DNA of 31,430 nt from Candidatus Diapherotrites archaeon CG11_big_fil_rev_8_21_14_0_20_37_9 (GCA_002762975.1 PCWY01000022.1:1-31430), one strand, 5' to 3'. Counted from the first letter of the stretch, positions 20,700 through 31,147 are shown. Notes: generated by a model from the sequence alone, not told the origin. A program made the numbers and translations.

Positions 20700-21971
20700 T
20701 TGAATTCTAATCAGGAAAGCAGTGAAGTTATTTGTGAAGTTTGTAAAATCCAATTAGATAAAATTGCACAGGTAAAGCATTTAACTAATCTTGAATTAGC
20801 TGTTCTTACTCAGCCGAAACGCGTGCTTAACATAAATATCCCTCTTATTATGGATAATGGGGTTGTAAAAATTTTTCCTGCATTTAGAGTGCAGTACAAT
20901 GATGCCCGAGGTCCTACAAAAGGAGGAATAAGGTTTCATGACCATATTAATCTTGCACATGTAAAGGAACTTGCATTTTTAATGAGTCTTAAATGTGCAC
21001 TTGTAGATATTCCGCTTGGTGGATCAAAAGGGGGAATTAAAGTTAATCCACGCGAACTAACTAAAGGAGAATTACAAAGACTTAGCAGGTCTTACATAAG
21101 GGAATTTGTTGATTTTATTGGTCCTGACAGAGATATACCTGCTCCTGATCTGAATACAACTCCTGAAATAATGGGTTGGATGCTTGATGAATATGAAAAA
21201 ATAATGGGCAAAAAAGCACCTGGGATGATTACAGGAAAACCTCTTTCAATTGGAGGAAGCAAAGGAAGAGTATATTCAACTTCTCTTGGGGGAGCTTTTA
21301 CAATTAGAAATTATTTTAACTCAATTTCAAAAAAAGAAAAAGGAACAACTGTTGCAATTCAGGGATTTGGAAATGTTGGTTCTCACCTTGCCAAAATTCT
21401 TGATGAGTGGGGTTATACTGTTGTTGCAATTTCAGATTCAAAAGGCGGAGTTTACAAAAAATCTGGTTTAGATATAAAAAAGCTTTTAGCAGAAGCTGAT
21501 TCAGGAAAAAAAGTTCAAGAAACAAGTGTTGGTGAAAAAATAAGTAATGGTGATTTGCTTGAACTTGATGTTGATGTGCTTGTTCCTGCTGCAGTTGAAA
21601 ATGTCATTAATTCAGGAAACATAGAAAAAATAAAAACAAAACTAATTGTGGAACTTGCGAATGGTCCTATTACAACTGACGCGGATGATTTTTTTGAAAA
21701 AAAGAATGTTGTTATTTTGCCTGATATTCTTGCAAATTCAGGTGGGGTAATTGTAAGCTACTTTGAATGGGTACAGAATCAGTCAAATTATTATTGGGAA
21801 GAGGAAGAAGTAAATCAAAAACTTGAAATGTATATGAAAAGAGCTTTTGATGAAGTAAATAAGTTAAAGAACGAGGGTGAATTTTCTTTCAGAAAAGCAT
21901 CCTATGTGCTTGCTGTAAAAAGAATTCTTCAAGCTGAGGAAGATAGGGGAATAATAGTTAAAAAAAAGTAA
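20700..21971 (+). CDS. gdhA: Glu/Leu/Phe/Val dehydrogenase, most likely glutamate dehydrogenase
   Basis: RGPTKGGIRF, GGSKGGI, DIPAPD, TGKP..GGS.GR, IQGFGNVG, ELANGP and PDILANSGGV.VSYFEWVQN. Confidence 0.93.
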   Translation: MNSNQESSEVICEVCKIQLDKIAQVKHLTNLELAVLTQPKRVLNINIPLIMDNGVVKIFPAFRVQYNDARGPTKGGIRFHDHINLAHVKELAFLMSLKCALVDIPLGGSKGGIKVNPRELTKGELQRLSRSYIREFVDFIGPDRDIPAPDLNTTPEIMGWMLDEYEKIMGKKAPGMITGKPLSIGGSKGRVYSTSLGGAFTIRNYFNSISKKEKGTTVAIQGFGNVGSHLAKILDEWGYTVVAISDSKGGVYKKSGLDIKKLLAEADSGKKVQETSVGEKISNGDLLELDVDVLVPAAVENVINSGNIEKIKTKLIVELANGPITTDADDFFEKKNVVILPDILANSGGVIVSYFEWVQNQSNYYWEEEEVNQKLEMYMKRAFDEVNKLKNEGEFSFRKASYVLAVKRILQAEEDRGIIVKKK

Positions 21972-22029
21972 TTTTTGTAAAGGGCAATTATAACTAACAT
22001 TTAAATACTTTAGGTAATGGTATTATTGT

Positions 22030-22077
22030 ATGGCTAGAAGGGATTTACTTTGGCTCAAATCAATTTGTTTTGAGTAG
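22030..22077 (+). other. Candidate leaderless uORF MARRDLLWLKSICFE (one Trp codon)
   Basis: ATG lies 30 nt after the start of TTTAAATA (22000-22007), upstream of tRNA-Trp and trpE. Confidence 0.3.
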
Positions 22078-22165
22078 TCCTAGGAATGCCATAGCAACTA
22101 TTTTTATTAAATTCTACTCTATTTACGCATGGCACTGGCTTTAAGCCACTGCATTGTAACTGATT

Positions 22166-22238
22166 GGGGATATAGCATAACCTGGTAGTGTACCTGGCTC
22201 CAGACCAGAGGATGGGGGTTCAAATCCCTCTGTCCCCA
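22166..22238 (+). tRNA. tRNA-Trp (anticodon CCA), intron-less, CCA tail not encoded
   Basis: Acceptor ggggata/tgtcccc plus discriminator A, D-arm gcat/gtgt, anticodon arm ctgg-ct-CCA-ga-ccag (CCA at 22200-22202), T-arm ggggg-ttcaaat-ccctc. Confidence 0.93.
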
Positions 22239-22240
22239 CA

Positions 22241-22275
22241 TCTTTTTATTTCTCTTAAAAAGAGAAAGGAAAAAG
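22241..22275 (+). promoter_or_regulatory. T-rich tract after the tRNA, able to pair into a long hairpin
   Basis: cttttt (22242-22247) with aaaaag (22270-22275), and tttctctt (22249-22256) with aagagaaa (22260-22267). Confidence 0.5.
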
Positions 22276-22326
22276 CGGTATCAAAAAGAAAGAGAATCAA
22301 GCATAATTTGTGCTTATAATGAAAAA

Positions 22327-23934
22327 GTGAGTTTATTGGAAGGGCTAAAAGAGCTGAAAAAAGCAAAGAAAGGAAGCATTGTTCCATTATACGAGGAAAT
22401 GTCCACTGAAATGAATGCATTTGATTATTTTAGTAGACTCTCAAATCACGGTGCTTCAAAAAATTCTATTTTACTTGAAAGCGCGGACATAATTACAAAG
22501 TATGGTGAAAAAAGCATTGGTTCTGTTGATCCATGCATTAAAGTAATTGGGCGAAGCGAGAAGTTTGAAATAATTTCTCTTAATTCTTTGGGTGACGAAT
22601 TCCTGAAAAATATTGTTCAGAATTTGCAGTTTTGTTCAGACTTAAAAATTGAAAAGAAAAAAATTTCAGGTACAATAAAAAAATCAAGTGCAATTACCTC
22701 TGAAAATGAAAGGCTTAACTCAAAAACACAGGCAGATATTCTAAGGGCAATTGCATTCAAACTTGTTCCTGTTTACAAACCTTTTCCTGTTTATGGCGGT
22801 CTATTTGGGTGTATTGCGTATGATTTTATTGATCAGTTTGAAACCCTTCCTGAAAACAAAAAAGATGTGCTTAACGAACCTGATTATGAAATGAATTTTT
22901 ATAATAATATTTTTATTTTAGACCATAAAAAGGAAAAAATTACTTTTGTTGCAAACGCCCTTATTTTTGATGAACAGGATAAAGATAAAGAATTAAAACG
23001 CTGCCAGAAAATAATTGATTCTTATAAAAAGGTGTTTTCAAAATCGCCAAATGGAAAAAAAACTAATTATTCAAAAAGAGTTGTTTCAACAGATACAACC
23101 AAAGAAGAATTTGAAGAAACCGTTTCTGAGCTTAAAAAAAATGTTTTTTTAGGGGATGTGTTTCAGGTTGTTCCTTCAAGAACCATAACTTCGACTTTTA
23201 GTTGTGAACCTCTTGACATCTATAATTCATTGAGAAATCTTAATCCAAGTCCTTACATGTTTTTCTTTTCAAATGAAGCAGGAATACTTTTAGGAAGCAG
23301 TCCGGAAACATTCATTAAAGTTTCAGGAGAAAAGAGAAAAAAAATTGAAATCAGACCTATCGCAGGAACCAAACCAAGAGGTTTTGTAAATGGGTTACTT
23401 GATGCAGATCTTGATTCAAGGTTTGAGGCGGAACTGAAAACAGATCAGAAAGAAATTGCCGAGCATACGATGCTAATTGATCTTGCGAGAAATGATGTTG
23501 CAAGAGTTTCAGAAGCAGGAAGCAGGCATTGTGATATGCCATACCGTATAGAAAAATATTCACATGTTCAGCATATTGTAAGCACGGTTTCAGGAACACT
23601 TAAAGCGAATATGGATGCATTACATGCTTACCTTGCATGTATGAACATGGGTACACTTACCGGTGCACCAAAAGTTGAGGCAATGAAACTTATAAGAGTA
23701 CATGAAAAAACACGGCGTGGTTTTTATGGTGGGAGTATTGGTTATCTTACTCCTTCAGGTGAATTTGATTCTGCAATAGTAATCAGAAGCATGACCCTTA
23801 AAGGAAACACCGCTTATATTCGGACAGGCGCGGGAATTGTTTATGATTCTGTTCCTGAGAAGGAATTTTTTGAGACTGAAAAAAAGGCACGGGCGTGTCT
23901 TGAGGCAATTGAAGTTGCGGAGGCAAAAAAATGA
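22327..23934 (+). CDS. trpE: Anthranilate synthase component I
   Basis: LLESAD, NPSPYMF, SSPE, PIAGTKPRG, EHTMLIDLARND, MNMGTLTGAPK and AGAGIVYDS.P..E..ET..K. Confidence 0.95.
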   Translation: MSLLEGLKELKKAKKGSIVPLYEEMSTEMNAFDYFSRLSNHGASKNSILLESADIITKYGEKSIGSVDPCIKVIGRSEKFEIISLNSLGDEFLKNIVQNLQFCSDLKIEKKKISGTIKKSSAITSENERLNSKTQADILRAIAFKLVPVYKPFPVYGGLFGCIAYDFIDQFETLPENKKDVLNEPDYEMNFYNNIFILDHKKEKITFVANALIFDEQDKDKELKRCQKIIDSYKKVFSKSPNGKKTNYSKRVVSTDTTKEEFEETVSELKKNVFLGDVFQVVPSRTITSTFSCEPLDIYNSLRNLNPSPYMFFFSNEAGILLGSSPETFIKVSGEKRKKIEIRPIAGTKPRGFVNGLLDADLDSRFEAELKTDQKEIAEHTMLIDLARNDVARVSEAGSRHCDMPYRIEKYSHVQHIVSTVSGTLKANMDALHAYLACMNMGTLTGAPKVEAMKLIRVHEKTRRGFYGGSIGYLTPSGEFDSAIVIRSMTLKGNTAYIRTGAGIVYDSVPEKEFFETEKKARACLEAIEVAEAKK

Positions 23935-24518
23935 AAAAAATTCTTTTTATAGATAATTTTGATTCCTTTACATATAACCTTGTGGATGAATTTGAAAAAA
24001 GAAACTGCGAAGTTATTGTGTACAGGAATAATACCCCAATTGAAAAAATAAAGGAAATAATTTCAGAACTCAAACCAGGATTAATAGTAATTTCTCCAGG
24101 TCCTTCAAACCCGGCAAATGCGGGCAACTGCATGCCTATAATAAAGGAATTTTCCGGAAAAGTGCCTATTTTCGGGGTTTGTCTTGGGGAGCAATGCATG
24201 GTTGAGGCATTTGGTGGAAAAGTTGGCAAGGCCCCCGAGACAATCCATGGGAAACCATCTCAGATTTTTCATGATTCCAAAGGGCTTTTTTCAGGGCTTT
24301 CAAACCCTTTTCAGGCAGGCCGTTATCATTCTCTTGCGGGCATTGAAATTCCGAATTGTTTTGAAATCAGCGCCAAAACTGCAGGCGGAATTGTGATGGG
24401 AATACGGCACAGGGAATTTTTTGTTGATGGAGTGCAATTTCACCCTGAAAGCATCCTTACGCCTGAAGGTGGAAAAATTATTGAAAATATTCTCGCAATG
24501 CTGGAGGCAAAAAAATGA
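23931..24518 (+). CDS. trpG: Anthranilate synthase component II (glutamine amidotransferase)
   Basis: IDNFDSFTYNL, SPGPSNP, GVCLG, RYHSL and QFHPES. Confidence 0.95.
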   Translation: MKKILFIDNFDSFTYNLVDEFEKRNCEVIVYRNNTPIEKIKEIISELKPGLIVISPGPSNPANAGNCMPIIKEFSGKVPIFGVCLGEQCMVEAFGGKVGKAPETIHGKPSQIFHDSKGLFSGLSNPFQAGRYHSLAGIEIPNCFEISAKTAGGIVMGIRHREFFVDGVQFHPESILTPEGGKIIENILAMLEAKK

Positions 24519-24598
24519 GTTTTGATAAAAGCCTCCTGCAGAGCAGGGTGCATCGCATCCAACTGACGAAACTGTTGCAGGAGGAAAAAAATGATTAA
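24515..24598 (+). other. 27-aa bridging [30 protein letters not shown] between trpG and trpD
   Basis: GGAGG (24503-24507) plus 7 nt precedes an ATG overlapping the trpG stop (ATGA). Its stop lies just after the trpD ATG. Confidence 0.5.
24532..24584 (+). promoter_or_regulatory. GC-rich hairpin sequestering the trpD RBS
   Basis: Perfect 9-bp cctcctgca (24532-24540) / tgcaggagg (24576-24584), with inner gggtgc-atc-gcatcc. Confidence 0.7.
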
Positions 24599-25604
24599 AG
24601 AAGCAATTTCACAGGTTATTGAAGGCAAAAGCCTTGGCAAAAATGAAGCAAAAGAAGTTTTTGATGAAATAATGTCAGGTAAATGTACTGACGCACAAAT
24701 AGCTTCGCTTATTACTGCGCTTCGCATGAAAGGTGAATCAGTTGAGGAAATAACTGGTGCAGCAGAATCAATGAGAAATGTTGTTGCAAAAGTAAATTAT
24801 TCTGGAAAAGAAGATCTTTTGGATATTGTGGGTACCGGCGGGGATAAGAAAAGCACTTTTAATATTTCAACTGCTTCTTTTTTTGTTGCCGCAGGTGCAG
24901 GATGTATTGTTGCAAAACATGGCAATAAAAGTGTTTCAAGCAAATCGGGAGCTGCTGATGTACTTACTGAGTTAGGGATTAATGTTGAAACATTGCCTGA
25001 AAGAAATTCTCAGATCCTTTCAAAAATCGGTTTAACTTTCATGTTTGCCCCTAAACATCACCCTGCAATGAAATATGCAATCGGACCAAGAAAGGAAATT
25101 GGGGTAAGAACTATTTTCAACATTCTTGGACCAATAACAAATCCTGCAAATGCAAATACTTATTTGCTTGGAGCTTATTCAAAGGAACTTGCGGAAAAAC
25201 TTGCTAATGTACTTTTAGGTCTTAATGTAAAAAAAGCAATTGTTGTTCACGGCTCGGGCTATGATGAGGCAACTCTTGTTGGAAAAACAGCTGCTTTTAT
25301 TGCTGAAAATAATTTTGTAACAAAAATAGAATTTGCTCCTGGAAAATTTGGGTTTTCTGCATGCTCTGATAAAGATCTTATGGTTGATTCTCCAAAAGAA
25401 TCTGCGGAAATAATAAAAAAAATTCTTGAAGGAAAAGAAAAAGGCCCAAAAAGGGATATTGTTCTCCTTAATGCAGGGATTGCGATTTATGCAAACGGGA
25501 AAGCAAAAAGTATTTCCAATGGAATTGAAATGGCAAAAAATAGCATTGAGTCTGGAAAAGCGCTTGCAAAACTAATGGAACTTTTGGAGGAATCAAACAA
25601 ATGA
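24591..25604 (+). CDS. trpD: Anthranilate phosphoribosyltransferase
   Basis: [47 protein letters not shown] and G.DE. Confidence 0.96.
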
Positions 25605-26989
25605 ATTTTCTTGAAAAAATTGCGGAAAGCACCGAAGCACAAGTTATAATGAAGAAAAAAATTCTTCCATTAGACAAAATAATGCGAAATGTGAAAAAGG
25701 GAAACCACGCTTTTTTGAATACAATTAAGGGAAAAAATAAGTTGTCTGTTATAGCCGAATTCAAAAAAAGTTCTCCTTCCGCAGGAAAAATTAACTCTTC
25801 CGCAAATTTGAAACAATTCATAAAACTTTATGATGAATATGCTGACTGCATATCCATTCTTACTGAAGAAAAATATTTTTCAGGGAAAATAAGTTATATT
25901 GCCGATGCTAAAAAAATTACTAAAAATCCTTTGCTTAGAAAGGATTTCATTATTGATGAATACCAGATTTATGAAGCAAGGTACTTTGGCGCGGATGCTG
26001 TTCTTTTAATTGAAAAACTTTTATCCAAAAAAATGCTTGAATATTTTATTAGCATAGCTGATTCAATTGGAATGGATTGCCTTGTGGAATGCCATGATAT
26101 ACGCGGACTGAAAAAAGTTCTTGATTCTGGTGCGAAAATTATTGGCATTAATAATAGAAATCTTGAAACTTTTAAAGAGGATTTTGGTAATACTGAAAAA
26201 CTTGTAAAAAAAATTCCTATAAAGAAAAGAAAAGATGTTATAATTGTTTCAGAATCATCAATTGATTCGATTGAAAAAATACGAAAATTACAGGGCAAAG
26301 TTGATGCTGTACTTGTGGGTTCTGCTATAATGTCTGCACCTGTTCCAAGAGTAAAGCTCAGGGAAATTAATGGAAAAACTCTTACAAAGATATGCGGAAT
26401 TACAACTGAAAGTGATGCAAAACAAGCTGTTTCTCTTGGTGCTGATTTTATTGGACTTAATTTTTATTCAAAAAGCCCAAGGTTCGTTTCGGTAAAAAAA
26501 GCCAAAATAATTGCCAATGCGGTTAAAGGAAAGTGTGTTTTGGTAGGGGTTTTTGTCGATGAATCTTCTGTAAAAGTAAAGCGAATTGCAAAAACAGTTG
26601 GATTGAATATGTTGCAGTTTTCCGGGAACGAATCTGAAAGTTATGTTAAAAAATTTAAAATTCCTTCAATAAAGGCAGTTCGTTTGAGCAAAAAAAATGG
26701 TATTAAAAAGTATTTTAAATACAAAACAAATTTTTTGTTAATTGATGCATTTGAAAAAGGACTTTTCGGCGGAACCGGTAAAACAGTTTCCAAAAACCTT
26801 TTGAATAAGTCTATTTTCAGTACGGGAAAAGTTGCTTTGTCAGGCGGATTAACCCCTGAAAATATAACTGATTTGGTAAGGCAGTATAATCCTGTTTTTG
26901 TGGATGTTTGTTCAGGAGTTGAATCATTTCCCGGAAAGAAAAGCTTTTCTAAAATGAAATCGTTTATTAGATATACACAGGTGATTTAA
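25601..26989 (+). CDS. trpCF: Fused indole-3-glycerol-phosphate synthase / phosphoribosylanthranilate isomerase
   Basis: [34 protein letters not shown] and GINNRNL, then KICGIT, GLNFY.KSPR, D.F..G.FGGTG, LSGGL.PEN and DVCSGVE in one 462-aa frame. Confidence 0.93.
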
Positions 26990-28179
26990 TGATTGGTAGA
27001 TTTGGCGAATATGGCGGACAGTTTGTTCCTGAAACACTTATGCCTGCAGTTAAAGAACTTGAAGTTGCATTTGAAAAATATAAAAATGATTCTGAATTTA
27101 ATGCCGAATTTGAATCTTTGTTAAAAAATTTTGTAGGCAGACCTACAGCACTTACTTTTGCCAGGCATTTAAGCAAAAAACTTAATTGTAAAGTTTATTT
27201 GAAACGCGAAGATCTTGCACATACTGGTGCGCATAAAATTAACAATGCGCTTGGTCAGGCATTGCTTGCAAAAAAAATGGGTAAAAAAAGAGTTATTGCA
27301 GAAACAGGTGCAGGTCAACATGGTGTTGCAACTGCAATTGCGTGTGCAATGCTTGGAATTGAATGTGAAATTTATATGGGTGAAGTTGATATTGAAAGAC
27401 AGAAACCAAATGTTTTCAGAATGAAACTTGCTGGTGCAAAGGTGACGCCTGTTGCAAGCGGAACAAAAACTCTGAAAGATGCTATTAATGAAGCTTTGCG
27501 CGACTGGACTGCAAATGTGAATACAACACATTATCTTCTTGGTTCGGTTCTTGGTCCGCATCCTTATCCTGAAATGGTTGCACATTTCCAAAGTGTTATC
27601 GGAAAGGAAGCAAGGGCACAGATACTTGAAAGAGAAGGCCAATTACCGAAAGCTATTATTGCTTGTGTTGGCGGAGGCAGTAATGCAATAGGAATTTTCA
27701 GCGGTTTTTTGAAAGATAAAGAAGTTGAACTTATAGGAGTTGAGGCAGGTGGGCTTGGAATTAAAAGTGGTAAGCACGCAGCCAGATTTGCAGATCCTAA
27801 ATTGGGGCGAAAGGGCGTGCTCCATGGAACAATGACTTATGTTCTCCAAGATAAATTCGGGCAAATTTATAATACTCATTCAGTTTCAGCTGGACTTGAT
27901 TATAGTGCGGTTGGTCCTGAGCATGCTAATCTGAAGGATATTGGTAGGGCAAGTTATAGTTATGCAACCGATTCTGAAGCACTTGCTGCATTCAAATTGC
28001 TTTCTGAAAAAGAAGGAATTATTCCTGCATTAGAATCAAGTCACGCAGTTGCCTACCTTTTGAAATATGCAAAAAAACTTTCTCCTGAGGATATTGTAAT
28101 TGTAAACATTTCAGGAAGAGGAGATAAGGATCTGGATATTGTTTTAAAGGAAATGGGGGGTAAAAATGAGGCATTTTAA
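26989..28179 (+). CDS. trpB: Tryptophan synthase beta chain (TrpB1-type)
   Basis: [62 protein letters not shown] and SGRGDKD. Confidence 0.97.
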
Positions 28180-28573
28180 AAAACTCCCAACTCAGGAAGT
28201 AGTGGATTTGACTGTTACAACAAAAAGTTTGTGTACTCGGACTCAGGGTTATTTTTTAACTGCACTTAAGCAAGGAAAAATACATGAAATTAAGGCAAAC
28301 ATTAGGGGAAAGCCTACTAGGCTTTTTGTCAAAGGAATTGAAGAAGCAAATGGGAAAGTAGTATATAATCATACTCCTGTTGGTAGTGAAGTAATTGGGT
28401 ATGCTGCAGGGTATAACTCAGAAACTCACCAATATTGTCGTCTTGGGGTAGAAGATGGCAAAATTTTTGTTTATAATGCTTATAATCTGGATGCAAGTAC
28501 GGGCAAACCAGGTTTTGAAGCAAGTCATAAAGTTAAAACTGCTTTTAAAAATCACGGTGAAACTCATGAATAG
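28166..28573 (+). CDS. Uncharacterised 135-aa protein inserted between trpB and trpA
   Basis: Overlaps trpB by 14 nt and trpA by 8 nt, and carries the GGTGA RBS of trpA. No recognised family. Confidence 0.7.
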
Positions 28574-29366
28574 ATACAAAATTACTTTTGAAAAATTAAG
28601 GCAAAAAAAACAAGGCGCTTTTATTCCATTTGTTGTTTTGGGGGACCCTGATTTTGAAACTTCGAAAAAGATTCTTGAAAAAATGGTAAAACATGCTGAT
28701 TGCATTGAACTAGGTTTTCCTTTTTCGGATCCGATTGCTGATGGAAAAAGAATTCAGGCAGCGGATGAACGTGCGATTAATGCTGGAATTAACCCTGATA
28801 AGTGCTTTGAACTTATAAAACATGTAAGGTCAATCAATAAGGAAATACCTATAGGCCTTTTGATTTATTATAATATAGTTTTTACTTCAGGAATAAATAA
28901 TTTTTTGGCAAAAACAAAAAAAGCAGGGGTTGATGCAATTCTTGTTGCTGACATGCCATTGGAAGAATCAAGTGAATTTAATTCTAAATGTATTTCTTCT
29001 GGTATTGAACAGGTTTTTATTGCAGCGCCAACAACAGGCAAGGAAAGGCTTGCCAAAATTATTTCCAAAAGTACTGCCTTTGTATATGTGGTAGGTGTTC
29101 TGGGGGTTACAGGAGAAAGGAAAAATGTTGATTCTTCTGCTGGAAGAATAGTTTCTTCGATAAAAAATATTTCAAAAATACCTGCGTGTGTGGGTTTTGG
29201 AATTTCAAAACCTGAACATGTAAAAAAAATTATTGGAGAAGGTGCAGATGGAGCAATAGTGGGATCTGCAGTTGAGGCAATAATTGAAGAAAATCTTTGT
29301 AATAAAAAAATCATGCTTGAAAAACTTGATGCTTTTTTTAAGGCAATAAAAAATGCGACGTGTTGA
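28566..29366 (+). CDS. trpA: Tryptophan synthase alpha chain
   Basis: FIPFVVLGDPD, IELGFPFSDPIADG..IQ, LIYYN, GVTG, VGFGIS and ADGAIVGSA. Start moved to ATG 28566 (GGTGA RBS). Confidence 0.95.
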   Translation: MNRYKITFEKLRQKKQGAFIPFVVLGDPDFETSKKILEKMVKHADCIELGFPFSDPIADGKRIQAADERAINAGINPDKCFELIKHVRSINKEIPIGLLIYYNIVFTSGINNFLAKTKKAGVDAILVADMPLEESSEFNSKCISSGIEQVFIAAPTTGKERLAKIISKSTAFVYVVGVLGVTGERKNVDSSAGRIVSSIKNISKIPACVGFGISKPEHVKKIIGEGADGAIVGSAVEAIIEENLCNKKIMLEKLDAFFKAIKNATC

Positions 29367-30631
29367 AAATGGATTTTGTTGAAATCAAAAAAATTGGTTC
29401 CTTATCAGCGGATATTGTAGCACCTCCTTCAAAAGCACATACTTTGAGAGCGCTTTTCATAAGCGCGCTTGCTGAAGGAAAAAGTACGCTTAGAAATGCC
29501 CTGAATGCTGAGGATCAGCAGATTGCAGCAAAAGCACTAAATGATCTTGGGGCAAAAATAGTTTTTAATGGAAAAGATTACCTTGTGCAGGGTGCTGAAG
29601 GGCAACTTTCTTCACCAAAGGAAATTATTTATACTGCTAATTCAGGTGTTACAACAAGATTTTTGATTCCAATTGCAGGAATAGCAAAAGGCAATACTAT
29701 TATTGATGGCTCTGAAAGAATGCGGGAAAGACCAATTAAAGAATTACTTGAATCTGCATCAAAAATTGGACTTAAAACAGAATCAAAAGAAGGAAAACTT
29801 CCAGTAAAAGTGATTGGTAAAACTCTTATCGGAGGCAAAACAGAAATTGATGCTTCTGAAAGCTCACAGTTTTTAAGCGCCCTGCTTATTGCAGGCCCAT
29901 TGACAGAAAATGGTATGTCTGTTTCTGTAAAGGGTGAAATGCGATCAAAACCCTATGTGGATATTACTCTTGATTGCATGGCTGATTTTGGAGTTAAAAC
30001 TGATAGGGAAGGATATGAAAGTTTTTTTGTGAAAAGCGGACAAAGTTACAAAGGAAGGGATTATTTAATTGAAGGAGACTACAGTTCTTCCTCTTATTTA
30101 TTTGCAGCAGCAGCAATTACAGGCGGAATTGTAAAAGTAAGGAATCTCAATAAAAATTCTGCACAAGGAGATAAAGAATTTATTTATTTTTTGGAAAAAA
30201 TGGGATGCAATGTTAATTTTTCAGGAGACTCTATTGTTGTTGAAGGAAATTCGCTCAATGCAATTGATGTTGACATGTCTTCCTGTCCTGATGTTGTGCC
30301 CACGCTTGCAGTTGTTGCCGCATTTGCAGAGGGTAAAACAAGAATTAGTAACATTTCTCATCTTTCTGCAAAGGAAAGTAATAGGATTGAAACAACCGCT
30401 GAAAACCTACGCAGGTGCGGGATAAAAGCAATTCCTGGAAAGGATTTTCTTGAAATAATTGGTGGCAAACCCCATGGCGCGGTTATTGAACCGTATAATG
30501 ATCACCGTATTGCAATGGCCTTTTCAATTATGGGGCTTCAAACAGGTGAAATGAGAATCAATAATCCAAATTGTGTTGGAAAAAGTTTTCCTGATTTTTT
30601 TTCAGTATTGAAAAAGTTTTATGGTGATTAA
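29360..30631 (+). CDS. aroA: 3-phosphoshikimate 1-carboxyvinyltransferase (EPSP synthase)
   Basis: PPSKAHTLRA, NSG.T.RF, RERP, SSQFLSALL, SKPYVDIT, EGDYSSSSY, KESNRI and DHRIAM...V.KSFPDF. Confidence 0.95.
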   Translation: MLKMDFVEIKKIGSLSADIVAPPSKAHTLRALFISALAEGKSTLRNALNAEDQQIAAKALNDLGAKIVFNGKDYLVQGAEGQLSSPKEIIYTANSGVTTRFLIPIAGIAKGNTIIDGSERMRERPIKELLESASKIGLKTESKEGKLPVKVIGKTLIGGKTEIDASESSQFLSALLIAGPLTENGMSVSVKGEMRSKPYVDITLDCMADFGVKTDREGYESFFVKSGQSYKGRDYLIEGDYSSSSYLFAAAAITGGIVKVRNLNKNSAQGDKEFIYFLEKMGCNVNFSGDSIVVEGNSLNAIDVDMSSCPDVVPTLAVVAAFAEGKTRISNISHLSAKESNRIETTAENLRRCGIKAIPGKDFLEIIGGKPHGAVIEPYNDHRIAMAFSIMGLQTGEMRINNPNCVGKSFPDFFSVLKKFYGD

Positions 30632-31147
30632 TTGAATATTGCACTTATTGGTTACAGGGCTACTGGCAAAACAACAATCGGAAAAAAACTTGCTAAAAGA
30701 ATGAATATGAAATTTTTGGATACTGATAAGATTATTGAAAAGAAAATAGGTAAAAAAATAAAAGATTTTTTTGATGAGCACGGAGAAAAGGAATTCAGGG
30801 AAATTGAATCAACTGTTCTTAAAGAAATTTGTTTGGGGGATGAACAATGTATTTCTTGCGGTGGGGGAATAGTTATTCTTCCTGAAAACAGGGATTTGCT
30901 GAAAAAAAAATGTGTTGTTGTATTACTTGAATCAACTCCTCAGGCTATTTACATGAGAACAAAAAAGGATAGTAAAAGACCCGCATTAACTTCGTTCGAT
31001 AAATTTGATGAAATCGTAAATGTTCTTGAGGAGCGTAAGGATAAGTATGAATCAATTGCAAATGTCCGTGCAGACACTTCCAGCATATCCATTGAAAAGG
31101 TTGTTCAAGTTATAATTGATAAACTTGTTGAGGGGGGTTACATTTGA
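30632..31147 (+). CDS. aroK: Shikimate kinase, bacterial P-loop (AroK/AroL) type
   Basis: IGYRATGKTTIG, DTD..IE, FREIE, GGG, RP.L and R...Y. GGTGA RBS precedes the TTG start. Confidence 0.9.
   Translation: MNIALIGYRATGKTTIGKKLAKRMNMKFLDTDKIIEKKIGKKIKDFFDEHGEKEFREIESTVLKEICLGDEQCISCGGGIVILPENRDLLKKKCVVVLLESTPQAIYMRTKKDSKRPALTSFDKFDEIVNVLEERKDKYESIANVRADTSSISIEKVVQVIIDKLVEGGYI

Follow-up and report, generated by a model that had tools for sequence, protein, structure and literature searches.

A tRNA-Trp gene in the putative transcribed leader of a tryptophan operon in DPANN archaea

Ribosome-mediated amino-acid attenuation is a textbook mechanism of bacteria. Here we describe a locus of Candidatus Diapherotrites archaeon CG11_big_fil_rev_8_21_14_0_20_37_9 (GCA_002762975.1 PCWY01000022.1:1-31430) in which the gene for tRNA-Trp stands directly before the tryptophan (trp) operon; the window analysed is the whole 31,430-nucleotide (nt) stretch, which makes up one entire contig. 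The region that precedes trpE resembles the Escherichia coli trpL attenuator in that a short open reading frame (ORF) with a Trp codon would open the transcript, candidate competing pairings and a U/T-rich tract lie before trpE, and the apparent logic is one of sensing ribosome speed. It departs from trpL in its archaeal host, in a mini-ORF that is leaderless and has one frame-0 Trp codon, with Trp-x-Trp only in the +1 frame, in having neither a GC-rich hairpin with a direct U-run nor an Rfam match, and in the functional tRNA gene that separates the putative sensor from trpE.

Units in which a tRNA and an mRNA are co-transcribed are also familiar, examples being E. coli thrU-tyrU-glyT-thrT-tufB, Methanosarcina pylT-pylS and the dicistronic tRNA-small RNA genes of Nanoarchaeum. 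As in such units, the tRNA gene described here shares a strand with the protein gene 3' of it, no promoter is apparent in the interval, and the tRNA would be released by RNase P and tRNase Z. In contrast to those units, the tRNA is cognate to the product of the pathway, lies 3' of a codon-specific sensor and would be controlled by its own codon.

A third comparison is with the frameshift site of prfB, which has the geometry AGGGGG-UAU-CUU-UGA-C. The leader shares with prfB a P-site CUU before a slowly decoded codon and a Shine-Dalgarno (SD)-like element 3 nt upstream, and in both cases shortage of a decoding factor would raise shifting. The differences are that the slow codon is UGG and not the UGA stop, that the shifted product is a leader peptide and not the regulated protein, and that archaeal precedent is for -1 shifting only, a 2021 review of archaeal recoding listing no +1 event (PMC8211752). 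The locus thus combines known devices (leader-peptide sensing, prfB-like shifting and tRNA-mRNA co-transcription), and we found no archaeal report of the regulatory ones; full-text literature searches returned nothing on linkage of tRNA-Trp to the trp operon, on archaeal Trp leaders or on tryptophan control in Iainarchaeum.

Read 5' to 3', the unit comprises a TTTAAATA promoter, a mini-ORF with one Trp codon, a +1 extension whose Trp-x-Trp sits in a hairpin, tRNA-Trp, an element made of a hairpin and a mirror tract, an SD sequence, and trpEGDCFBA-aroA-aroK, and it has been inherited as a block across the Iainarchaeota. We estimate a probability of roughly 60% that the tRNA-Trp gene is built into the transcribed leader of the trp operon together with a Trp-sensing mini-ORF, and we hold with moderate confidence that the locus would be a single transcription unit.

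Linkage of tRNA-Trp to trpE

tRNA genes were called with ARAGORN, genome-wide in intron mode, with Rfam RF00005 as a second model. The tRNA-Trp(CCA) gene occupies 22166-22238 (to 22239 according to ARAGORN) on the + strand, as do all window features below, and scores 60.4 bits against RF00005 (gathering score 29). It is intronless, its CCA end is not encoded, and its acceptor stem reads GGGG...CCCC-A, with G1-C72 and discriminator A73. This pair and discriminator are the archaeal and eukaryal identity set for tRNA-Trp, bacteria having G73. ARAGORN and Rfam both agree with the original prediction that this is the sole tRNA in the 31.4-kb window and that it lies on the same strand as trpE. It is also the sole tRNA-Trp among the 36 tRNAs of the 1.13-Mb genome, which at 85% completeness leaves slight room for a second copy. 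The complete genome AR10 belongs, like the other nearest TrpE relatives, to Candidatus Iainarchaeum-type DPANN archaea, and its trp-linked tRNA-Trp gene is the only BLAST match there to the homologous tRNA-Trp. The window gene is the cell's working tRNA-Trp.

Using TrpE as query we fetched 80 loci (numbered L; AR10 is L064). In 13 of them an intronless tRNA-Trp lies directly 5' of trpE on the same strand, and intron mode adds five further linked loci (L008, L020, L022, L041 and L005). Synteny in related genomes had been proposed as a check on the linkage, which indeed recurs in 18 further genomes. In the TrpE tree the linked loci fill one clade of 22 rows with a Shimodaira-Hasegawa-like approximate likelihood ratio support of 99, corresponding to the Iainarchaeota; 18 of these rows have the tRNA, three have no upstream sequence and one (L037) has no tRNA, so that 18 of the 19 testable members are linked. 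Linkage is also present outside this clade, in L060 of a Woese/Nanoarchaeota-type clade, where the leader ends in TGG CTT TAG followed by the same hairpin as in the window. We considered L060 as a second, independent origin of the arrangement and dropped the idea on account of this homologous leader end.

The genes upstream of the unit vary between loci (glutamate dehydrogenase (GDH), DAHP synthase with a histidine phosphatase (His_Phos), AbiEi, VIT1 and glycosyltransferases), and several are on the opposite strand; the conserved block therefore begins just 5' of the tRNA. Because 18 of the 19 testable clade members keep the layout while their upstream neighbours differ, the linkage is neither chance nor an integration scar.

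In several relatives the tRNA-Trp gene is interrupted 3' of the anticodon by an intron of 26-136 nt (L008:2740-2900, L020:201-389, L022:803-1012, L041:4-138 and L005:2832-2930), and in L005 ARAGORN calls the tRNA-Trp(CCA) as an intron-bearing tRNA-Arg(CCG). Separately, certain tRNA-Trp and tRNA-Ile genes have long 5' leaders with a shared GCGAAGAT(G/A)G motif and, after it, a GC-rich hairpin whose end is 2-5 nt from the tRNA (L001:90-147, L006:2745-2815, L020:60-200 and L022:720-802 and, in the genome of the window, C21 and C49, 5' of both tRNA-Ile genes). By analogy, the motif is similar to the strand that carries the bulge in a kink-turn, the binding site of L7Ae.

A Trp-codon mini-ORF in the leader

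The leader opens with an archaeal TATA box, TTTAAATA, at 22000-22007 (8/8 match), 22 nt before the ATG of a mini-ORF at 22030-22077. Read in frame 0 from the sequence, this ORF encodes MARRDLLWLKSICFE and a stop (beginning MARRDLLW) and has a single Trp codon, at 22051-22053. The TATA word is conserved at 8/8 in 13 of 16 related loci, where it lies 22-23 nt 5' of the mini-ORF, with 7/8 variants in L060 and L064. This spacing is as expected for a leaderless message, and the word matches the TATA type found before other tRNAs and leaders of the genome.

Homologous mini-ORFs precede tRNA-Trp in L003-L007, L009, L011, L012, L014, L021, L022 and L029, with sequences such as MARRDLLW, MKRRDSLW, MQGDSLWLR and MNSGDLLWLH (the last two followed directly by a stop), and a short ORF with a Trp codon is kept at the start of the operon in at least 13 loci. 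In L018, L048, L036 and L037 the homologous mini-ORF stands directly before trpE with no tRNA between; those of L048 (MKKCDLLWLNTE) and L018 (MKQSDCLWHEQPLF), each ended by a stop, come from other DPANN lineages. The tRNA had been proposed to take the place of the Trp-rich leader peptide that one would expect here. This is contradicted by the Trp-codon mini-ORF 5' of the tRNA, whose +1 frame ends in W-x-W: since homologous leaders without a tRNA precede trpE in L018 and L048, the tRNA is embedded in the leader and has not replaced the leader peptide. Two other biosynthetic operons in the window open with leaderless mini-ORFs as well, one Leu/Val-rich and one Phe/Tyr-rich.

Clustered cognate codons were looked for in the initiated frame of the leader and not found, frame 0 having its single Trp codon and W-x-W occurring in the +1 frame only. 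Around this codon lies a candidate +1 frameshift cassette of prfB-like geometry at 22039-22054, consisting of the SD-like AGGGAT, the spacer TTA, CTT, TGG and C. The window and L004-L007 share AGA AGG GAT TTA CTT TGG to the letter, with zero synonymous changes. An SD-like word of the form G[GCT]G[AG][TG] (GGGAT, GTGAT, GCGAT, GTGAG or GTGGT) lies exactly 3 nt 5' of the shift site in every locus. The site itself is CTT TGG in 17/17 loci of a survey of the +1 frame and CCG TGG in L024, L025 and L036. The genome has a tRNA-Leu(GAG).

From the shift site, the +1 frame of the window is open over 22052-22144, encoding GSNQFVLSSPRNAIATIFIKFYSIYAWHWL and a stop (GSNQ to TIFIKFYSIYAWHWL), with Trp codons at 22130-22132 and 22136-22138. 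In 15 of the 17 surveyed loci this frame runs for 28-54 codons without a stop; frame 0, by comparison, is closed within 3-8 codons and frame +2 within 1-16. ATG is absent from all 15 open +1 ORFs, and in seven loci GTG and TTG are absent as well. A W-x-W motif lies 1-5 codons before the stop in 13/17 loci. L060 is an exception in that its leader starts with ATG and ends in WCWW. Over the conserved block of the four closest loci, differences fall 25/15/40 at +1-frame codon positions 1/2/3, with 22 synonymous codon differences; as judged from these substitutions, the excess at third positions is a signature of translation in the +1 frame.

In L037 (from 2913 onward) and L057 (from 2919 onward) the +1 frame runs from the conserved shift site straight into TrpE. 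As a further observation, the +1 frame of L024 and L025 (CCG TGG) and of L030 (CTT TGG) extends for about 70 codons and ends a few nt from the trpE start, a layout that suggests translational coupling to trpE.

Predicted RNA structure of the leader

A helix, P1, pairs TATGGC (22029-22034) with GCCATA (22088-22093) in the minimum free energy fold and encloses the mini-ORF. It joins the transcript 5' end, including the start codon, to a segment 11-16 nt past the frame-0 stop. Across loci the strands vary in sequence and stay complementary (GAAGC:GCTTC, GAGACTAT:ATAGTCTC, GTGGAAGC:GCTTCCGC and TGCAAGGC:GCCTTGCA); when the pairing of each strand with its own partner was compared with its pairing to partners from other loci, the observed value was reached in 2 of 20,000 permutations. 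Locus by locus, P1 is mostly not significant against shuffled partners, and it is the covariation across loci that is.

Seven nt after P1 lies a T5 tract (22101-22105) within the +1 ORF, and most loci have T4-T6 tracts 1-12 nt 3' of the 3' strand of P1. Oligo-T is a signal for archaeal transcription termination, and the tract is a candidate attenuation site. Downstream, the hairpin ATGGCACTGGC-TTTAA-GCCACTGCAT (22129-22154) has both Trp codons of the +1 ORF in its 5' arm and the +1 stop codon in its loop. A TGGC...GCCA hairpin at or just past the last Trp codon recurs in the window, L001, L003, L005, L009, L011, L021 and L060, with variants in L012, L014 and L029. The tRNA begins 21 nt past the +1 ORF stop. 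A classical GC-rich hairpin with a direct U-run was not found in the window leader, and an Rfam cmscan of 21950-22400 with E up to 5 returned only the tRNA and chance matches, with no match to the Trp_leader family.

Probable transcription through the tRNA into trpE

The main alternative to a single transcription unit is that the tRNA and trpE are transcribed separately. In that case the tRNA would have its own promoter, the TATA-like word TTTATTAA at 22103-22110, and would end at the T-rich tract that follows it, trpE would start from a weak, non-consensus promoter in or after the hairpin-purine element between them, and the adjacency would reflect clustering of cognate genes. We consider this unlikely. 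The TATA-like word does lie 63 nt 5' of the tRNA in the window and L004-L006 (subclade form TTTATWAA), overlapping the T5 tract of the leader, but within the +1 ORF it codes for the conserved I-F-I-K-F and varies synonymously, so that in the subclade of the window it behaves as coding-like sequence. It is missing in L007, L011, L014 and L029, which have no further word of at least 7/8 between the leader TATA box and trpE.

The interval between tRNA and trpE had been read as holding neither a TATA box nor a ribosome-binding site. The first half of this stands, as there is no 8/8 TATA-like word: CTTAAAAA (7/8) lies within a hairpin loop and CTTATAAT, at 22312, is too near the start codon. The second half does not, since a weak SD-like GTGAG occurs at 22327-22331. 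SD-like words lie 3-10 nt before trpE in all relatives, SD-like starts are the norm in this genome, and its Shine-Dalgarno word is GGTGA/GTGAT. The trpE ORF called mechanically begins at GTG 22327, three codons before a TTG at 22336. We favour the TTG because the ATG start codons of L001, L006 and L007 align there (M-E-G-L-K-E-L in the window, M-E-G-K-N-E-L in L001) and because of the SD-like GTGAG. The gap between tRNA and trpE is therefore probably 97 nt; the 88 nt of the original prediction holds for GTG 22327 and not for the likelier start.

In relatives this gap can be far shorter: 11 nt in L009, 20 nt in L064 (AR10) and 26 nt in L011, with no T-run of 5 or more (the longest being a T4 in L011). 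Gaps of this size leave no room for a trpE promoter, contrary to what separate units would need. The view that the trp genes are expressed by read-through from a tRNA promoter is accordingly borne out in part: read-through past the tRNA is probable, but the conserved promoter lies before the mini-ORF and not at the tRNA.

The element between the tRNA and trpE (22242-22296) consists of a pyrimidine arm, CTTTTTATTTCTCTT (22242-22256), a loop, a purine arm, AAGAGAAAGGAAAAAG (22260-22275), a 7-nt spacer and a mirror purine tract, AAAAAGAAAGAGAA (22283-22296). It folds into a hairpin and is generic, not trp-specific, with at least 15 three-part copies in the genome (C7:6815, C19:2993, C21:15079, C22:8612, C26:5605, C29:10895, C29:11818, C34:4960, C36:670, C38:5356, C43:4727, C45:6773, C49:8676, C57:7193 and the window copy). 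The spacer between hairpin and mirror tract is 7-8 nt across copies. In 15 copies the third tract matches the purine arm as its mirror image at 191/199 over the full length, against a partial 163/177 for a direct repeat. A pyrimidine tract, its reverse complement and a mirror tract are, by sequence, the predicted design of an intramolecular triple helix.

Each copy is next to one or more ends of genes or tRNAs: its hairpin is separated by 1-10 nt from a stop codon or from the 3' end of a tRNA, or by 3-7 nt from the 5' end of a tRNA. Copies occur behind the thermosome, FtsZ and Spt5 genes and also at convergent gene ends. This habit of following gene ends would suit separate units, as would the T5 directly after the tRNA, which is like that of the genome's other tRNA genes. 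Yet copies also occupy the purN-purH and Spt5-L11 intervals, where no TATA word comes after them. The element follows tRNA-Trp in at least ten relatives, lies between tRNA-His and hisS in three other genomes and, in the same orientation and with T5-T7 runs, sits inside the tRNA-Trp introns of L008, L020, L022 and L041; the short gaps of L009, L064 and L011 are without it. Because it must be transcribed through in the introns for tRNA-Trp to be made, the element is not a tight terminator. It is likely to be a leaky stop, a structure that protects the RNA end left by excision of the tRNA, or both.

Two other roles for the element were dropped. That of a tight bidirectional terminator was rejected on its presence in tRNA introns and operons. 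From the purine arm to a point just beyond the mirror tract is about 22 nt, as it is from TATA box to start, which makes a promoter role for trpE conceivable; this was rejected as the main explanation, since the purine arm is unlike the TATA words of the genome and the element also occurs in introns and at convergent ends.

A small hairpin, AAGCA-TAATTTG-TGCTT (22299-22315), lies just 5' of the trpE ribosome-binding site and was seen in the window alone.

Cognate tRNA-gene pairs

Four other tRNAs of the genome precede the gene of their own aminoacyl-tRNA synthetase on the same strand: tRNA-His before hisS (about 24 nt, C26:1743-3094), tRNA-Arg(UCU) before argS (44 nt, C46:4189-5824), tRNA-Lys(UUU) before class II lysS (85 nt, C19:10208-12031) and tRNA-Ile before ileS (348 nt, C49:3625-6897). 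With Trp this makes five cognate pairs among 36 tRNAs, where chance would give well under one. Of 29 loci drawn from 40 genomes of the order, 17 have tRNA-His no more than 150 nt 5' of hisS, and tRNA-Thr often follows. Cognate tRNA-gene units are thus a habit of the lineage, so a function is favoured over an integration scar.

These pairs also bear on a second alternative, in which the locus is one transcript without a Trp sensor. The tRNA would then be a module for strong constitutive expression and processing, its excision would define the trp message, its folding and processing would set the output, and the leader would be kept for its RNA structure or for promoter-proximal reasons. The commonness of tRNA-to-cognate-gene pairs here (hisS, lysS, argS and ileS), with no obvious cognate leader ORF noted upstream, is in keeping with this view, and the nucleotide invariance of the leader could reflect RNA structure such as P1. 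However, the invariant core is exactly the Trp codon after CUU and the SD-like word; the +1 ORF is open and ATG-free, ends in W-x-W and has substitutions like those of coding sequence; loci that have no tRNA still have a homologous Trp leader before trpE; and the sister operons in the window have mini-ORFs of their own. A leader without a sensor therefore seems quite improbable to us.

A third possibility, also part of the original prediction, that the trp-aro block was acquired horizontally and integrated at tRNA-Trp, with the Trp/Trp match a coincidence, is very improbable. In its favour, integration often targets tRNA genes, the trp genes appear to be of bacterial type by Pfam (fused trpCF, SKI-type aroK) and TrpE has close relatives in Planctomycetota and Fidelibacterota by search and tree. 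Against it, the window holds no second copy of the 25-nt tRNA 3' end at up to 3 mismatches (the contig ends at 31430, beyond which the far border of the block is unseen), and the annotated flanks (GDH, His_Phos, trp and aro) include no integrase. The discriminator of the tRNA is the archaeal A73, the block follows the tRNA 3' on the same strand and begins with an SD-led gene, the homologous Trp leader is 5' of the tRNA and, in tRNA-less lineages, directly before trpE, the arrangement is inherited clade-wide, and four other cognate pairs cannot all be coincidence.

Proposed regulation

In the reading that we prefer, with tRNA-Trp embedded in a Trp-sensing leader, RNA polymerase would start at the leader promoter and make a single primary transcript, from which RNase P and tRNase Z would excise the tRNA. 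The hairpin element after the tRNA would let only a fraction of the transcription pass to trpE, and it may shield the trp mRNA at its newly made 5' end. With less certainty, the mini-ORF would let a translating ribosome sense charged tRNA-Trp. If Trp-tRNA is abundant, the ribosome would read UGG and stop at 22075, P1 would close, and transcription would tend to end at the T5 tract of 22101-22105. When Trp-tRNA is scarce, the ribosome would wait at UGG and slip +1 on CUU-U, aided by the SD-like AGGGAU 3 nt upstream. The shifted ribosome would then translate through P1 and the T tract and stall again at the two Trp codons of the hairpin, and more polymerases would reach the tRNA and the trp genes. 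Shortage of charged tRNA-Trp would in this way lead to both more tRNA-Trp and more tryptophan synthesis.

The most specific form of the proposal is tentative. It holds that a hungry UGG triggers a prfB-like +1 shift in a leaderless mini-ORF, carrying transcription through the attenuator into the sole tRNA-Trp and the trp operon, and that this is one case of a wider DPANN rule by which tRNAs act as processed 5' modules before cognate genes and are followed by triplex-type hairpins that protect the RNA end. Such a chain of events is possible on the sequence comparisons given above, and we place less weight on it than on the embedding of the tRNA in the leader.

Several points weigh against the preferred reading. 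Every functional step is deduced from sequence comparison. The only tRNA-Trp found would lie behind the attenuator, which would require substantial basal read-through. The TATA-like TTTATTAA, in the window's subclade, could be a separate, second and constitutive promoter of the tRNA. A T5 run at 22243-22247 follows the tRNA as it does stand-alone tRNA genes here, and much transcription may stop there. The +1 shift is without experimental precedent in archaea. L007, L019, L013 and L064 lack the W-x-W ending. With codon-pair context taken into account, ordinary genes show no specific avoidance of CUU-UGG; a deficit of 43 observed against 80 expected was dropped as evidence, because the CTT share ranges from 0.12 to 0.72 depending on the codon that follows and the gene calls are crude. 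The predicted folds are no more stable than shuffled sequence, either for the leader (z -1.25) or for the stretch after the tRNA (z -0.94), and folding stability was for this reason not used as evidence. RNAalifold on the raw MAFFT alignment of 15 leaders gave no consensus structure; as the 5' strands were misaligned in that input, the comparison of own and foreign partners was used for P1. Finally, the related loci are kin, so that counts of them overstate their independence.

If the proposal is true, the locus would be the first case of leader-peptide attenuation in archaea and the first regulatory +1 frameshift in an archaeal cell, and the tRNA gene would regulate itself by way of its own codon. 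Such a case would show that archaea use coupled transcription and translation for gene control, and how tiny DPANN genomes save promoters by using tRNAs as processed leader modules. The design is compact and conserved, about 340 nt (21990-22340) spanning promoter, sensor ORF, shift site, attenuator, tRNA and the start of trpE. For annotation, it implies that mini-ORFs, intron-bearing tRNA-Trp genes and the trpE start are easily missed or mis-called.

Triplex-type elements at other RNA ends

Bacterial intrastrand triplex motifs have been described as PIT, BoxC and TMECO (Holder et al. 2015, PMC4666352). The element at 22242-22296 is like these in its three-tract triplex design and its repetition across the genome; it differs in being A/T-rich and tied to gene or tRNA ends, tRNA introns and intercistronic gaps. 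A role at the RNA level, in end protection or leaky termination, is at least as likely for it as the DNA instability proposed for the bacterial motifs. In five of the copies the hairpin ends 3-7 nt 5' of a tRNA (Ser, Val, Glu, Ala or Cys), with an extra pyrimidine tract upstream. Once RNase P has cut, the upstream RNA of these five would, by analogy with MALAT1-mascRNA, end 3' in a triple helix of the U.A-U type.

Genes of the window and their relatives

Protein genes were identified by Pfam. Before the leader lie two ORFs, for a histidine phosphatase (His_Phos) and a glutamate dehydrogenase (GDH). trpE (anthranilate synthase I; Chorismate_bind and Anth_synt_I_N) runs from 22327 or 22336 to 23934 and is followed at 23931-31147 by trpG, trpD, a fused trpCF, trpB, trpA, aroA and a SKI-type aroK.

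In the TrpE tree, L046, L050, L054, L058 and L062, labelled Fidelibacterota/Neomarinimicrobiota, and L068, labelled Nomurabacteria, are nested in the DPANN clade beside L010. Such bacterial-labelled contigs reflect either mis-binning of DPANN contigs or transfer between DPANN and bacteria.

At the trpB-trpA junction, about 44 residues of the trpA ORF (28455-29366) precede its Pfam Trp_syntA match, and a 135-residue ORF in another frame (28166-28573) bridges the two genes. The junction (28166-28580) may contain an insert or a mis-called start.

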